A stretch of 53,326 nt of DNA, the filler included, from Bipalium vagum (Eukaryota): assembly GCA_037834085.1 (NCBI GenBank). It is 3 parts of 3 records of this genome, joined end to end, with 100 filler letters (N's around TTAATTAATTAA, not from the genome) between each part and the next. Parts side by side here need not be neighbours in the genome. Positions count along the whole stretch, not along the records: positions 35,138 to 53,326 come from JBBMKC010037308.1; 2 more parts are not named here. One strand, given 5' to 3'. Position numbers and translations under genes: made by a program. The first letter of the stretch is position 1. The number at the start of each line of letters is the position of its first letter. Under the pieces are notes generated by a model. That model had not been told where the DNA came from. It worked only from the letters and a program-made list of their open reading frames with translations, and did no database searches. Shown here piece by piece: positions 6,217 through 52,830 of the stretch.

Positions 6217-7324
6217 TTAGGTTGTCCCATAAGTAATTGTACTTTTTTAAATCTCTCTATATATTGCTATTAGCGATTGTTTTTGCAATTCTTTTGATTT
6301 AGTTATTGATCTTAATATTATCATAATCAATGTTAACTATTTTTGTTTTAGATATTTTAACTAATGGCGGAAATATTAGCAGGAGATCGACATGCGTTGC
6401 GAGCATGTATATTATATGAATTTCTACAGGAACGTAAAGCTAGTGATGCTCATCGAAATTTGTGCACTTATCGAGGAACCCATGGCAAGTGTAAAGAAAC
6501 TTGCTTCAACACTCGATCTAGCAAAAACTATTATCCATCGTCATCTGAGGAACTCAGGAAGAAGGCCAAAATTTGGTAAGTTATACCTCATGAACTGACC
6601 GATCAGCAAAAATTGAACCGTTGTGCCATATCAATCTCATTGCTCTCTCGCAGACGGACGTTTTCTTGGATTGACAAAATTATTATAGTGATGAAAAATG
6701 GGTTACGTACGATAACCCCACCAAGAAACGACAATAGGTTGAATCCGGCGAAAACCCAAAAAAGATTCTGAAACATGAAATCCATGGTAAAAAGGTGTTG
6801 CTGTCAGTTTGGTGGGATTCAAAGGGAATAATTTATCTTGAGCTGCTTCCTGATAATACCACAGTTACTGCTAATGTATACTGTGAACAATTGCAGGAAA
6901 TGATAGCCGCTTATTGAAGTCTGCGTCCAAATGCTGATCACGTAATATTGTTGCATGATGACGCCCGTCCTCACAGTGCAAAACTGATTCGAGAAAAACT
7001 GAGAGAGTTGGATGTCGAAATCTTGCCACATCCTGCATATAATCCCGACCTTGCTCCAATCGATTTTCACTTATTCAGGTCCCTGCAACATCATTTGGAT
7101 GGTAGGCGTTACATAAATCGGAACAATCTTCTCACTGACCTCAAGCCTTCTTCAGTAGCCAGCCTCCAGAATTCTAAAAGCGTGGATTCGTCCAATTAAC
7201 AGAACGTTGGCAAGAAGTTATTAGATATAAAGAAGAATATATTGATTTATAAAGTTTTGTTTTTAATAAATTTTGTAAATAAAGTTTTATTAAGAAAAGT
7301 ACAATTACTTATGGAAAAACCTAA
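6217..7324 (+). mobile_element. Mariner (DD34D) element with both TIRs; internally deleted, transposase pseudogene
   Basis: 30-bp TIRs TTAGGTTGTCCCATAAGTAATTGTACTTTT (2 mismatches between ends), with TA on both sides. Motifs IPHELT, DEKWVTYDN, KKVLLSVWWD, LLHDDARPH, HPAYNPDLAPIDFHLF. Confidence 0.95.
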
Positions 7325-19056: not shown

Positions 19057-19156
19057 NNNNNNNNNNNNNNNNNNNNNNNNNNNNNNNNNNNNNNNNNNNN
19101 TTAATTAATTAANNNNNNNNNNNNNNNNNNNNNNNNNNNNNNNNNNNNNNNNNNNN
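19057..19156. other. Assembly gap with artificial linker
   Basis: 44 N + TTAATTAATTAA + 44 N = 100 nt. The linker puts stops in all six frames. Confidence 0.97.
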
Positions 19157-22859: not shown

Positions 22860-23846
22860 GGTTTCAAGTAAATTCTCATTTTTTGTTAATTTGAAAAGAC
22901 ATTCTTTCTCAAAGTAAAAACATTATCCTATAAATCGTAAAAGTTTTCCTTTGAATAAAAATTTTTTTATAACTAAAATAAAATATTAAACAATTGTTTT
23001 CTTAAATATCAGGTGGAACTAACGTGAAGTAAGGCTATAATTTTCATCTGTATAATGAACTTTTAAGGGCAATCATTTTCTTTGCATTGCTGTGGAACCG
23101 AACCATTTTTTGTTGAACTCATCTTTAAATATACAAACAGTGGATTGCTGCTTACTTTTATTACAACTAAATTCACGTTACATCAATGGTTAAAATGTTG
23201 TAAATTTAATTTGAATGACCTATGTTAAATATTGGATCATTTTGATACCATTTAACACGATATTCTTTTATAGAAGATGTCGAATGGTGTGGGATTAAAC
23301 AACTACAAAGCTTCCGTACTTTCAGATGATCCAGGAAAATGGTTTTAATTGGTTTCATGTCAATACCAACATATGCCTCAAATTCACGGTATGTGATATG
23401 TAGATCTCTTTCAATCATTTCACGCTCATCAGAAATATTAGTGACTACAACTGACTTTGATGGACTACCCTCACAAAATTTTCCTTAAAAATAGTGCGTT
23501 CACGTTGTAATTCTCCGACTAATTTGTTAACGCAACTCTTTGGTGGTGATTCATTCCGAAATGTTAAATGAAATAGATTTAGACATTGTTTCTATGTTCA
23601 GGCAACATTTTAAATCATAATAAATCATTGGACGATAATTTTCATAAATTAGTTCTTACTCATATTTTAAATGTTTTCCTATTTAAAACAAATCATTATT
23701 TCAAATGTATAATTATTTAAATCAATTCATTATCTTAAATTATTCAAATGATTTTTTGGTAATTCAATATCGAATTTTATGATTATGTCAGTTATTAAAA
23801 GCGCCTAATAAAATTCCAGATTTCACAATCTTTCCAGCACCCCAGG
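22860..23846 (-). mobile_element. Degenerate mariner
   Basis: ORF 23206..23418 reads IERDLHITYREFEAYVGI...DHLKVRKLCSCLIPHH. A TA-flanked TIR-like end CCTGGGGTGCTGGAAAG lies at 23846. Confidence 0.8.
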
Positions 23847-35037: not shown

Positions 35038-35137
35038 NNNNNNNNNNNNNNNNNNNNNNNNNNNNNNNNNNNNNNNNNNNNTTAATTAATTAANNNNNNN
35101 NNNNNNNNNNNNNNNNNNNNNNNNNNNNNNNNNNNNN
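35038..35137. other. Assembly gap with artificial linker
   Basis: 44 N + TTAATTAATTAA + 44 N, identical in design to the gap at 19057. Confidence 0.97.
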
Positions 35138-40259: not shown

Positions 40260-40411
40260 NNNNNNNNNNNNNNNNNNNNNNNNNNNNNNNNNNNNNNNNN
40301 NNNNNNNNNNNNNNNNNNNNNNNNNNNNNNNNNNNNNNNNNNNNNNNNNNNNNNNNNNNNNNNNNNNNNNNNNNNNNNNNNNNNNNNNNNNNNNNNNNNN
40401 NNNNNNNNNNN
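40260..40411. other. Assembly gap (152 N)
   Basis: Run of N. Confidence 0.99.
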
Positions 40412-43069: not shown

Positions 43070-43467
43070 ACAATCACTTGTTTGACAATTTTTCCACCAT
43101 ACACACACGCAGAACGTAAGGAAGTCGTGAAATTTGATTGGTGGGCAAAGACTTCAATCACGATAAAGCGCTTTGATTAATAGTACAATCACAGAAGAGA
43201 AGATTATTATTCAATGCTTGACGTAACAGACGTTCGATCTGATTGGCGCTCACCGTCATCAGTGCCATTGAGTAAATGAGATTCGCTAATATAAAGTGAG
43301 TCGAGGAATGTTTTTATATTTTCCAAATTTATATTATCCTCATAAACATTGATATTTGCCTTTCTGCACACTTTATAATATCATTTCAAATATATAATTG
43401 TTTTAATTATAACCGGAAAAAAGTAAATCACTTTTAAATTGGACCTGTAACATTTTTTTCTCTTCAG
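43070..43467 (+). promoter_or_regulatory. Putative proximal promoter / 5' leader of the gfi1-like gene
   Basis: Locally GC-richer and free of transposon remnants. Contains GGAAGT (43120), TGACGTAA (43219), inverted CCAAT (ATTGG, 43242), TATAAA (43290-43295) and multiple AATCA(C) sites. Confidence 0.55.
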
Positions 43468-43469
43468 AA

Positions 43470-43569
43470 ATGTACCGATCCGACATGGTCCAGCCTCATG
43501 ATGGTTTGACCAAACAAAATCTGAACAATCTACCAATTCCATTTCCATGGTTAGCGTTATTTCGAAAAT
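43470..43569 (+). CDS. gfi1: gfi1-like coding exon 1 ([33 protein letters not shown])
   Basis: ATG at 43470 lies just after a pyrimidine tract and CAG. The frame is open to a phase-1 donor (T|GTAATT at 43570) that matches the phase-1 acceptor at 43647. There is no homology support, so this exon is less certain than the finger exons. Confidence 0.65.
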
Positions 43570-46023
43570 GTAATTTTTTATCACTTTGAATTCTTTTCTG
43601 TCAAGCTATATTTACGTGTATATATTATTAATATTTTTTTGATTTAGTCTTTGGATTAAATGTCCCGCTTCCTATTTTTCCAAATGCACATTTCAATCCC
43701 AACATTTTATCAAAACAAATTTTCAACAGCAACTCCAATTTTACAATGAATAATTCTTCGAAAACATTTTCGCCTCCGACATCAAATATACCGAGAATTG
43801 TGTCTCCCTTTAATTTTTCAAAAATCGACACCAGTGTTCATAGTTCTTCGGAAATCAGTTGTCAAGGTGATAGCAGCATCGGAGAAATGAACATGAATGG
43901 AATTCCAGTTGGAAATGAAGTAAATGAAAATAATATGGAAGTCTTAAATAACTTCAAATGTATTCGTTGTAAAAAATATTTTCCAAATTCTCATGGTCTG
44001 GAAGTCCATGTCAGAAGGTTATTTGACTGTTTTTAAAATACAACTGTTAACATATTTTCTTTTAGATCACACAGTGGTCGACGACCTTATGAATGTGATA
44101 TCTGTCCAAAAAGCTTTGGTCATTCGGTGAGCTTATCTCAACATCGAGTAACTCATACGCAGGAAAAACAATTTCAATGTCCACAATGTGGAAAGCGTTT
44201 CAAAAGATCTTCAACATTAAGCACTCATTTACTAATTCATACGGGAAATCGTCCTTTTCCTTGTCCTTATTGTTCCAAAAGTTTCCATCAGAAATCAGAC
44301 ATGAAAAAGCACACGTACACTCACACAGGTAATAATATTAGTAATGATATCAATAATGATAATAATCCAATCAATATTTTAATTAATTAAACTTTTCATT
44401 AATAAATAATAAGTTGGTTTAAGTAATAAAATAGGCTATAGAATTCGTTTGTATAGAGATTTGTAAAACTTTCAATTTTAATAAATTGTTGGCTTAGGCA
44501 ACAATGGATGAATTGCAAACAATAGGATGTATAATTTTGGATACAATAGATAAGTACCAGCTTAGGCAATGATGAGTTTATCATATTAAGAGATAATTCC
44601 CAAGTGAATTCGAATCTGAGGACAATAAACAGAGACAAATACATAACTCCAATACAAGTAGCATGTTAGATTATTTGGCCGCCATAATTAGCGATTTTAT
44701 CTATTAATATTATGATTGCATGTCCACGTCTTTGTATTTGGCCATATCTGAGTTTTATACCAACATTTATGGTCTCGTGGTAGATGTAATTTCCATTTAA
44801 TGATGAATTTATGATTTCTTTCATCAATAAGGTTTTTAATCCAATTGAAAATATTTCAATATAGATATGAACGAGCTCTCAGATATTGATTAAATCTATT
44901 AAGGAAAATTTATGATACCATATGTTGGTTAGATAATAACTCCATAATATTTTTTTGATAATATAAATCCACCAGTTCATTAATTAAATCTTTGTCTCCT
45001 GTTTTTCTGTATGAGAAGCGAAATGTAAAGTCAGGAGACTTGATCATCAAAACATTCTGAAGAGAATGGCATCGTCTAGTACTAGTGGGATCCAGTCGAA
45101 CTGTTTGTAATATTTAAGATTGGGATGCTTCATTCACGACTTTTGTTGTTTTGTTGCATCAAGACTTAGTTCTTCAATAATATATAAAAATTAATTTGTA
45201 TTCCTTTCATCTAGATTTGTTATTTAGGTTTTAGGAAAATTTGAGGAAATTCACTAACCGCTCCTAACATAATAACTGATTGTCATTATCCAATACCCTT
45301 AAGGTCTCAAAGAATATTATTTTTATTATTATAGTCATATCATGATATGGCCACATTTTCGAATGAAGAAGAATTGTTTCTTGATTCTGAATACTTAGCG
45401 ATTTATTTAAATGTTCTAATGTCTCTTGTTAGGAAATCTATTAAACACCTAAACCTGATATTTTACGTGACATTCTGCCAGTAATTCTTTTACTGAAATG
45501 AGATCCCTTGACATGATAAAACCAATTAAACATTATCTATTATTATGACAATGAAAGCGTTTGTTTGATGAATATTGTTTAAGAGTTTAACAAAGAAGTT
45601 AATGAGAGTATTATTATAAATTATTATTATTATTACTATTCATATTACCATTATATAATTGTAGGAGAAAAGCCATATAAATGTGTCGTATGTGGTAAGG
45701 CATTCAGTCAATCATCAAATCTCATAACGCACTCCCGAAAGCATTCTGGAGAGAAGCCTTTCTGGTGTCATAAATGTTCCAGAGGATTTCAAAGAAACGT
45801 AGATCTACGAAGACATATTCAGTCTCAACACGTTGAAGAAAATGAGGCATTTTGTAAAACCATAGATAGATTATCATCATCCAGTATGGATGAAAAATGT
45901 TACATAGATCCTATTAAAAATGAGTCTGTAAATATTATAAATATACCAATGAAGAAAACAAACTTACCTTATTCAGTAGAAAATATTCTTGCAAACCATT
46001 CACAGTTGGATCATTTATGTTGA
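43470..46023 (+). CDS. gfi1: Gfi1/Senseless/PAG-3 family C2H2 zinc-finger transcription factor; 4 coding exons, join(43470..43569,43648..44017,44066..44328,45665..46023), 363 aa
   Basis: The spliced translation gives six fingers: [116 protein letters not shown] and [24 protein letters not shown]. These carry the diagnostic Gfi1 strings [33 protein letters not shown] and [13 protein letters not shown]. All introns are GT-AG and phase-compatible (78, 48 and 1336 nt). Total CDS is 1092 nt ending in TGA. Confidence 0.95.
43648..44017 (+). CDS. gfi1: gfi1-like coding exon 2 (Asn/Ser-rich region and most of zinc finger 1)
   Basis: Acceptor TTTTTTTGATTTAG ends at 43647. The frame is open, includes ORF 43746..44036 and reaches HGLEVHVR. 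Donor AG|GTTATT at 44018. Confidence 0.88.
44066..44328 (+). CDS. gfi1: gfi1-like coding exon 3 (zinc fingers 2-4)
   Basis: Acceptor TTTTCTTTTAG ends at 44065. Encodes [10 protein letters not shown]...HTYTHT. Donor CAG|GTAATA at 44329. Confidence 0.95.
44420..45130 (-). mobile_element. Decayed non-LTR retrotransposon (CR1/L2-like RT) remnant in intron 3
   Basis: Minus-strand remnants in RT order, heavily frameshifted: [31 protein letters not shown]. Confidence 0.5.
45665..46023 (+). CDS. gfi1: gfi1-like coding exon 4 (zinc fingers 5-6 and C-terminal tail)
   Basis: Acceptor TTGTAG ends at 45664. Encodes [27 protein letters not shown]...[19 protein letters not shown]. Not in the ORF track. 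Confidence 0.95.
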
Positions 46024-46109: not shown

Positions 46110-46115
46110 AATAAA
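46110..46115 (+). terminator. Candidate polyadenylation signal of the gfi1-like gene
   Basis: First AATAAA after the stop codon, about 87 nt downstream, followed by T-rich sequence. Confidence 0.5.
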
Positions 46116-47449: not shown

Positions 47450-48040
47450 TTATAAAAGATTTAACGGAACACGGAATAATCAAATTAGAAAAAATTTCAT
47501 TTACAATTACAAATTAGGCAAAAAAAACGGCTTGAAAATGTTGGCCAAGAACTAATTAATGATTGTGTTGTGCAGCGTGGATATGAACTTTTTGTCAGAT
47601 CGATGTGATCCTTGACTGTCACGAAGGTCACGACATTAATAATGACAAGCTAAAGAAGATAGTCGAGGTGGATCCAATTAAAGCCATTATAGAAGTAGCA
47701 GGGGAACAAAACCTCGACCATACCATTCTAATTCATCATTTAAATATAATTGAAAAGGTAAAACTATTGAAATGTTGGTGCAACACCAGTTGAGCGGAAA
47801 ACAATGAATCATCATTTTAAAGTGGTATCTTCACTGCTTTTACACAACAACAATGATCCATTTCTTCATCGAATCATGATGTGCAATGAAATGGAGGCTA
47901 TGTCAAATCGAAAACGTTCGATACAATGGTTGGACAATAGTGAAGCTCTTAGGCACTTTCAAAAACTAATTTAAACCCAAAAAACAAGTTATCTTGACTA
48001 TTTGGTAGTTCAATTATCAAGATATCAAAAAACTTGTTAA
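47450..48040 (+). mobile_element. Mariner 5' half, degenerate
   Basis: INNDKLKKIVEVDP..DHTILIHHL, PFLHRIMMCNE and RKRSIQWLD. Confidence 0.75.
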
Positions 48041-48078: not shown

Positions 48079-49200
48079 GATTATCTTTTGAAAAGTCCCT
48101 GGCCCGAACATGAAAATACACTAATAGTAAAAAACTACCAAAATTAATGAAAAGTGCATTGTTTTAGACTATGAAATACCAAATTTTAATGAATTTATCA
48201 ATTTTTTTAAATTATCCACTAACATTAGAATTACATACTCAGTTTTGATTTTTTAGATGGAAAAGGTGAATTCCGTATATTGATTAAGCTCTATTTTTTA
48301 TGAAAGAAAACTCAAAAAGAAGCAGAAGAAAACTGGATAAATATTATAGTGATTTTGCTTCTTCGTATTCAATGGTAAAAAACTGGGTCGCTGACTTTAC
48401 ACGCGGTTTAAACTTTTAAAGCACAAATGAAGCAGTCTTCAGATTGAAGTGGTTGTGTCAGAGAACATTCAAAAATCCATGAAGCAATTATGGATGATCG
48501 AAAAATCAAAATCCGCGAGCTATCTAACTTTACAAAGAGTCAATAGTGTTTGGAAAATAATTCACTATGAATTTGAAATGAAAAAGCTTGTCGCAAAATG
48601 GGTGCCGCGCACTTTGACAATCAATCAAAAGCAGCAACGAGTTAATGATTCAAAGCTGTATTTAAGCGTTTTTAATGGAAATCAAAATGAATTTTGAGTA
48701 GTTTTATAACCGTTGATGAAACTTGGATGCATAACCGGTGAAGGTGCTCCACACCGGCCAAAATCACACTGGTCAGCTGGAAAGGTTATGACAACTGTTT
48801 TTCGTGACGCCTATGGAATACTAACTATTGATTTCATTGAAAAATGGAAAACGATAATGGGACGATATCATGCAGCATTAATGGGTGAATTAAGTAATAT
48901 AAAGGTAGTAAAAACCACATTTAGCACAAAAGAAAGTGTTTTTTCATCATGAAAATTCACAACCTCATCGAAATGTAATTTCAACGATTAAAATACACGA
49001 ATTGCACTAAAATTTGCTTCTGCATCCATTTTATTCTCTGGACTTAGCACCTAGCGACTTTTTCTTATTCCCAAACTTCAAAAGATCACTCTCTTGTAAA
49101 AGATTTTAGACAAATGGAGACTATGTTGAATAATAAAACTTTTTCATGTCTTAAAAAATTATTTTTGTTTGTAAGACCAGGGACTTTTCGAACAACCTAG
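48079..49200 (+). mobile_element. Mariner (Himar1/irritans-like) with both TIRs, pseudogenised
   Basis: TIR core GAAAAGTCCCTGG at 48090 and inverted at 49177-49189; the end is CTAG|TA. Motifs KWVPRTLT, FITVDETWMH, AGKVMTTVFRDAYGI and YSLDLAPSDFFLFPN. Confidence 0.9.
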
Positions 49201-52365: not shown

Positions 52366-52830
52366 ATTAAGTTGTAAAGAAATAAATGGCGCTTCTTAAC
52401 ATTGAACTTTAAATGAACAAATCATACCTTAAACAAAATTTTATTTATCAAAATAAAAACCTTTACATTTTACACATTTCTCCCAATAAGTCACAAGCTG
52501 ATTTATCCCGATTCGATAAAAATATGGAGCTCTAGATGATACAAAATATTCAAAGACTTTAATTTCAGCATCATCATTGGGGAATGTTCTCTCGCTAAAG
52601 AATTTGTTCAAGTGTTTGAAGAAATAATAATCAGTAGACAAGAGGTCTGGTAAGTAGGCTGGGTGAGGCAGAATTTCAATATGAAGCTAGTTCGATTTTT
52701 GTACGTTAGGTTGCCCAACGTGTATCTGAGGTTATCATGAAGAATCAATGGGCCCTTTCTATTGACCAAGGCTGGGTAAATTCAATTAGGTTTTTGATAC
52801 ATTTCTTCGATTTTCACACAATACAAGTAT
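52366..52830 (-). mobile_element. Mariner 3' half (Hsmar1/cecropia-like)
   Basis: LVNRKGPLILHDN, HPAYLPDLLSTDYYFFKHL...GINQLVTYWEKCVKCKGFYFDK*, with a TIR-like end near 52366. Confidence 0.9.

Follow-up and report, generated by a model that had tools for sequence, protein, structure and literature searches.

How a repressor of the Gfi1/PAG-3/Senseless type might silence its targets when it has no working SNAG motif is the question raised by a predicted gene on the + strand of a 53,326-nucleotide stretch of Bipalium vagum DNA (GCA_037834085.1; the whole of this stretch is called the window below). In its predicted last exon, after zinc fingers 5 and 6, positions 45970-45990 of the + strand translate as YSVENIL, which a first-pass annotation had taken for an eh1-like, Groucho-binding motif in a tail of about 64 residues, on a protein of the Gfi1/Senseless family. 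Translation confirms the word and its place (the ten-residue peptide that includes it spans 45964-45993 of the + strand); the tail has 63 residues, with YSVENIL beginning at residue 47 and 10 residues after it. The family assignment holds as well, with six tandem C2H2 fingers whose helices are family-specific and whose array is 77% identical to that of the best mollusc homologue over 168 columns. The motif is real, lies after finger 6 and is conserved in six named flatworm genera, whose proteins have no SNAG. The reading favoured here, with a probability of about 0.78, is that a conserved eh1-type motif ends this protein and would recruit Groucho/TLE in place of SNAG-LSD1.

The case for conservation comes from comparison across the family. 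A search with exon 3 gave, within the best 120 of 2,241 matches, 57 proteins of Gfi type, mainly from molluscs and other marine invertebrates, and none of the 57 has an eh1-like word after finger 6. A profile that joined finger 6, minus its linker, to the window tail, tuned offline to exclude many-finger proteins, was run against 1.84 billion representatives; from the best 150 of 207 matches, 80 proteins of Gfi type were kept and 70 were dropped (67 unrelated, and three finger-6-only Gfi fragments without eh1). In the combined set of 137 Gfi-type proteins (57 + 80), the strict eh1 pattern, [FY]S[IV]xx[IL][LM], occurs after finger 6 in seven, where shuffles lead one to expect 0.053. The words are LPYSVENLL in both Heterobilharzia and Trichobilharzia, LPYSVALLL in Paragonimus, LPYSVELLL in Fasciola (two species), ISYSIENIL in Schistocephalus, LGYSVAQLL in Cichlidogyrus and LPYSIEQLL in record P0384. 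All six named carrier genera are parasitic flatworms (trematodes, one cestode and one monogenean), and the C-terminal motif is present in 9 of the 10 named flatworm records and in all six genera whose tail is complete; the one remaining record, from Dibothriocephalus, is marked partial and ends before the matching position. Strict C-terminal eh1 is found in none of the 62 named non-flatworm proteins. Retrieval bias from the motif in the query was considered and can largely be rejected, as six of the seven carriers, with the motif masked in the targets, keep a score no lower than that of the 150th match. Other searches were less specific: a word search with the tail alone gave no homologue among 12 candidates, one with the last exon gave no Gfi-type protein in the best 120 of 2,490 matches (many-finger proteins dominate), the 54 loci matched in a metagenome scan (38-52% identity) encode generic finger proteins, one of them with a match to a Gfi-like word, the ESM Atlas returned generic C2H2 clusters, and the last 32 residues matched a single PDB entry, by chance.

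The tails of these orthologues, 63 to 161 residues long, are unalignable, and in an unguided MAFFT alignment the Tyr, the Ser and the last Leu of the motif are the sole invariant columns after the fingers (7/7 rows). Positions that the search pattern does not cover are kept too, namely Leu at -2 (6/7 tails), Pro at -1 (5/7) and Glu at 4 (5/7), with a typical identity of 0-0.2 in the flanks, so that the motif stands out as a peak of conservation. When 9-mers are compared without any anchor, the motif is the best match in 6 of 9 tails (0/60 shuffles). A check that had been proposed with the first-pass annotation, for a conservation peak in a variable tail, turns out in favour of the motif; the annotation's idea that this orthologue had itself gained the motif is not borne out, given the same C-terminal motif in every named flatworm genus with a complete tail. 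A feature of the flatworm lineage, inherited from a flatworm ancestor and not private to the window orthologue, is the likely interpretation.

Other words recur at the ends of Gfi tails: P[IV]GxxIQELA in P0373, P0333 and P0354, one of the carriers being the bdelloid Didymodactylos, and KCKDPIGDEIRKLE in P0317, P0331 and P0336; each is possibly another co-factor motif. The protein of Seison nebaliae (P0360) has LFDIVSVI at its start and FYINTILS at its end, words that come near FxIxxIL and fail the strict pattern. The length of the window tail was also considered as an unusual feature and rejected, many invertebrate Gfi tails exceeding 60 residues without the motif; the proteins retrieved include no named vertebrate Gfi1.

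Could YSVENIL be accidental, in a tail that is unconstrained or not translated at all, or could it come from a wrong gene model? The eh1 core is FxIxxIL (PMC4287436), and YSVENIL fits it in the form aromatic-x-I/V-x-x-I/L-L. The strict pattern, which it also fits, arises in 0.10% of 200,000 shuffled tails, as against 7.9% for a loose pattern, and is found, over the six frames of the window, at 7 of 106,648 positions, or 0.4% per tail length. Since the motif was picked after being seen, conservation is the real test and not the shuffle chance. Enumeration of splice sites yields a predicted four-exon Gfi-type gene of about 363 residues, with its ATG at 43470, its stop at 46021-46023 and introns at 43570-43647, 44018-44065 and 44329-45664 (the acceptor AG ends at 45664); an alternative donor for intron 1, at 43504, also keeps the frame. 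The parts of the gene are as follows.

43470 to 43569, + strand: predicted first coding exon, starting MYRSDMVQ, with SNAG absent or degenerate (predicted start and donor)
43648 to 44017, + strand: predicted exon 2, with the intermediate region and most of finger 1 (splice model, finger comparison)
44066 to 44328, + strand: predicted exon 3, with the end of finger 1 and fingers 2-4 (splice model, finger comparison)
45665 to 45831, + strand: first part of the predicted last exon, with zinc fingers 5 and 6 (splice model, finger comparison)
45832 to 46023, + strand: C-terminal tail of 63 residues plus TGA stop, unalignable outside the motif and predicted to be disordered (translation, alignment, AlphaFold2)
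45964 to 45969, + strand: Leu-Pro immediately N-terminal of the motif, making up the flatworm-type extension LPYS[VI]xxLL (Leu -2 and Pro -1 kept in tails)
45970 to 45990, + strand: eh1-type motif YSVENIL, aromatic-S-V-x-x-I-L (translation, alignment, predicted short helix)
46110 to 46115, + strand: AATAAA, candidate polyadenylation signal 87 bases 3' of the stop (sequence)

An accidental match would suit a tail whose G+C content is intron-like (0.276, compared with 0.40 in the finger part), a last exon with three donor-like sites in it, and a DNA similarity to a second gene copy, described below, that ends at 45846 and hence before the motif. It is nevertheless highly improbable, as a 64-codon open frame has a chance of 0.3% at the local intron composition and the same motif terminates orthologues in six genera.

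Upstream of the ATG there are a reverse CCAAT at 43242 and a TATAAA at 43290, and AAATCACT at 43425 resembles the Gfi site, with autoregulation as a possible consequence. Elsewhere the window holds decayed mariner-type transposase-like fragments (6918-7199, 23206-23484, 47587-47974, 48431-48952 and 52441-52781), of which only 6918-7199 has a Pfam match, to DDE_3 and below the cut-off (nine other window frames were scanned, with no marker among them that would place the organism), and runs of N at 19057-19156, 35038-35137 and 40260-40411.

The other half of the argument concerns SNAG. The predicted start, MYRSDMVQ, does not fit MP[RK]SFL[VI][KR]: compared with the consensus of 27 SNAG examples it has 3 of 7 identities after the Met, with Pro2 and Phe5 lost, and 9 of 1,122 other ATG-started peptides of the window (about 1%) reach its score. 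It may be a remnant of SNAG or a chance resemblance. No better SNAG-like start was found on the + strand of the window, where two in-frame candidates further upstream are without SNAG; an alternative first exon is conceivable, given a strong acceptor-like site that ends at 43467, three bases 5' of the ATG. Of the 'broken SNAG' proposed earlier, the lack of a working SNAG at the predicted N-terminus therefore stands, while its identity as a remnant is weak.

Within the 137 Gfi-type proteins, SNAG occurs in 27 and strict eh1 in 16, and the two are never found together (0/137). Of the 30 mollusc records 17 have SNAG, as do Tubulanus (a nemertean), Owenia (an annelid), Priapulus (a priapulid) and three hemichordates. 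Strict eh1 also occurs before the fingers, in nine proteins where 0.157 would be expected. A slightly wider pattern finds it there in 11 of the 13 named nematode records, the two others being a shorter model and a last-exon fragment, and an eh1-like word is present in each of the nine named nematode genera whose N-terminus is covered (Plectus, Caenorhabditis, Strongyloides, Panagrellus, Auanema, Bursaphelenchus, Aphelenchoides, Halicephalobus and Acrobeloides). The nematode PAG-3 word, YS[IV]xxLL, is carried by P0232, P0252, P0267/P0397, P0286, P0302, P0347, P0352, P0357/P0398 and P0399; the nematode-type protein P0287 is without an N-terminal eh1. In arthropods, three of six genera have an eh1-like word before the fingers, namely FSVSSLL in the copepod Tigriopus (P0358), YTIEELL in the scorpion Centruroides (P0407) and FTISSLV in the crayfish Cherax (P0148), and Allacma, Orchesella and Aethina do not. 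Nematodes and some arthropods seem, by this comparison, to have reached the same solution through eh1 before the fingers. The balance tips slightly towards a history in which SNAG was ancestral in bilaterian Gfi proteins and at least two independent swaps from SNAG-LSD1 to eh1-Groucho took place, C-terminally in flatworms and N-terminally in nematodes and some arthropods. As separate observations, Strongyloides PAG-3 has two N-terminal eh1-like words and many nematode PAG-3 proteins end in a short LNLS-type word; in molluscs, the finger tree has two groups of Gfi paralogues, with SNAG-bearing members in both.

The fingers themselves are conserved. They share 70-78% identity with full Gfi arrays, the recognition helices of fingers 3-5 are the same as in Gfi proteins, and residues 36-87 of exon 3 match the Gfi-1 structure 2kmk in the PDB (E 3e-27), although longer multi-finger proteins score above it; the linkers between fingers 3-4 and 5-6 are unusual. 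Run X1, the one run in which the window DNA is present, also contains a second, diverged copy of the gene at lower depth, from a paralogue or from another animal in the library, which is similar to the window over 43646-44723 (covering the first 97 bases of exon 2) and 45663-45846. Between the window and this copy, exon 3 has 28 synonymous and no non-synonymous codon changes (in 40 of 69 difference rows), and the fingers are therefore under purifying selection. The second copy resembles part of intron 3 as well (44518-44723), a possible sign of a conserved regulatory element there.

Several points weigh against the reading of a Groucho-recruiting motif in place of SNAG. The co-repressor switch, with Groucho binding and repression, is what we infer from the sequence, and the gene model, with its start, donor and splicing, is itself a prediction. 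No free-living flatworm is included among the named flatworm matches. In the unanchored comparison the Cichlidogyrus motif is best but weak (13/60 shuffles), the best segment of Paragonimus lies elsewhere, and Seison has no such motif. The carriers of eh1 represent about three lineages, so the mutual exclusion of SNAG and eh1 does not amount to 16 independent cases, and neither motif is present in 40 of the 81 proteins that are near full length, from which it follows that loss of SNAG does not require eh1; some of the 40 are probably models without a first exon. Finally, the window protein forms a very long branch (about 1.0 changes per site; 1.19 against a median of 0.047) and falls, in the finger tree, in no supported group beside a named lineage.

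This last result bears on an alternative in which the eh1 is real but was gained independently in this lineage, the likeness to flatworm tails being convergence. The finger tree does not join the window protein to the flatworms, convergent evolution of eh1 is documented (PMC1310626), the N-terminal YSIENIL of Strongyloides PAG-3 is the very word found C-terminally in Schistocephalus, and Seison ends in FYINTIL. A clade of the window protein with five flatworm rows, which the tree itself does not show, is not rejected, however (approximately unbiased test, p-AU 0.615); the 98/96 support for a group of flatworms and the window protein, being relative to nematode rows only, is not used. Several rare finger residues are common to the window protein and flatworms, and two to the window protein and trematodes only, such as the Thr in HTYTH, which occurs in 4 of 37 rows, all of them trematodes. 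A flatworm source is accordingly likely. The motif lies on the same side of the fingers and no more than 17 residues from the C-terminus in six of the seven rows, the LP extension shared by the window and flatworm tails goes beyond the eh1 consensus, and the 62 named non-flatworm proteins have no strict C-terminal eh1, all of which makes an independent gain unlikely.

If the motif does recruit Groucho, a mechanism can be outlined. Fingers 3-5, with their unchanged recognition helices, would bind the Gfi site on DNA; the disordered linker of 46 residues would leave the motif free to adopt a short helix that spans the central pore of the Groucho WD40 domain; and the recruited Groucho would silence target genes in the specification of sensory neurons. 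AlphaFold2 (alignment of seven rows, mean predicted local distance difference test score, pLDDT, of 63) predicts two fingers, a stretch with pLDDT below 50 (residues 60-100) and a helix at 104-111 (local pLDDT 62), so that, as far as this prediction goes, the motif can form a short helix and sits in disordered sequence beyond the DNA-binding domain. Known eh1 peptides bind over the pore at the centre of the Groucho WD40 propeller (PMC4287436), mutation of two core eh1 residues in MLS-1 abolishes UNC-37 binding and function (PMC3154951), and a Tyr-type eh1 is functional in Hairless (PMC1310626). The Gfi family has roles in neural and sensory fate (PMC9098437, PMC2889900, PMC11232438), and in planarians RNA interference against GFI1B removes two types of ciliated neurons (PMC11232438).

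It is also conceivable that the conserved word binds a partner other than Groucho, or mainly governs protein turnover instead of repression. The LP extension is conserved and yet lies outside the eh1 core, Gfi proteins are also co-activators (PMC9098437; PMC11457946), and, according to a 2026 preprint, SCF-FBXL14 brings about the degradation of eh1 factors that TLE presents (PMC13308096). That route itself requires TLE binding (PMC13308096), however, and so adds to the Groucho reading, and the conserved positions 1, 3, 6 and 7 are the exact hydrophobic pattern of eh1; such a role is accordingly quite improbable. Direct recruitment of Groucho by the motif remains the preferred explanation.

A link between Gfi proteins and TLE is as such already published, since TLE3 co-precipitates with human GFI1B by way of another element, at the N-terminus (PMC6426870). 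Literature searches gave no report of eh1 in the Gfi family, most subscription journals lying outside their coverage, so that absence from print is not established; no paper joining eh1 with pag-3, or SNAG with eh1, was among the matches listed, and the available parts of PMC2657203 and PMC11457946 contain no link from PAG-3 to UNC-37. One of the papers matched names Senseless in a reference only, and another concerns FOXC1. In the eh1 scan by Copley, human GFI1 and GFI1B and fly sens score -7.8 bits and pag-3 2.9, all under a cut-off of 10 bits and without comment in the available parts (PMC1310626). SNAG has been described as a vertebrate acquisition, and the mode of repression by invertebrate Gfi proteins is left open in the available parts of the same two papers (PMC9098437, PMC2889900). 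Among the proteins retrieved, molluscs, hemichordates, a priapulid, an annelid and a nemertean have SNAG, and eh1 occurs in lineages that have none. If the swap is true, PAG-3 and flatworm GFI1B, which are without SNAG, would gain a direct mechanism of repression through UNC-37/Groucho; if the motif binds Groucho, a conserved regulator of neuron fate would, more than once, have exchanged its co-repressor and retained the fingers with which it binds DNA.

Among known systems, Gfi1/Gfi1b, Senseless and PAG-3 resemble the window protein in their six C2H2 fingers and family recognition helices; the window protein differs from them in having no working SNAG, a C-terminal eh1, and the unusual linkers. 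Odd-skipped/Bowl, like the window protein, has a C-terminal eh1-like motif after its C2H2 array (PMC1310626). It belongs, however, to another finger family. Its eh1 is not known to replace SNAG. Similarly, Fezf/Fezl/Earmuff is a C2H2 neural repressor with an eh1 on which repression depends (PMC1310626). Fezf is set apart from the window protein through the high identity of the latter to Gfi arrays. Six fingers are found in Fezf too. CES-1 of C. elegans is again a C2H2 factor with eh1, and it interacts with UNC-37/Groucho (PMC1310626). Its motif is N-terminal, however, and its family a different one. CES-1 is part of the Snail/Scratch group, other members of which use SNAG, and would be a precedent for such a swap. 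The ingredients are each known, gains of eh1 being common; what is new is their arrangement, and not the kind of system.
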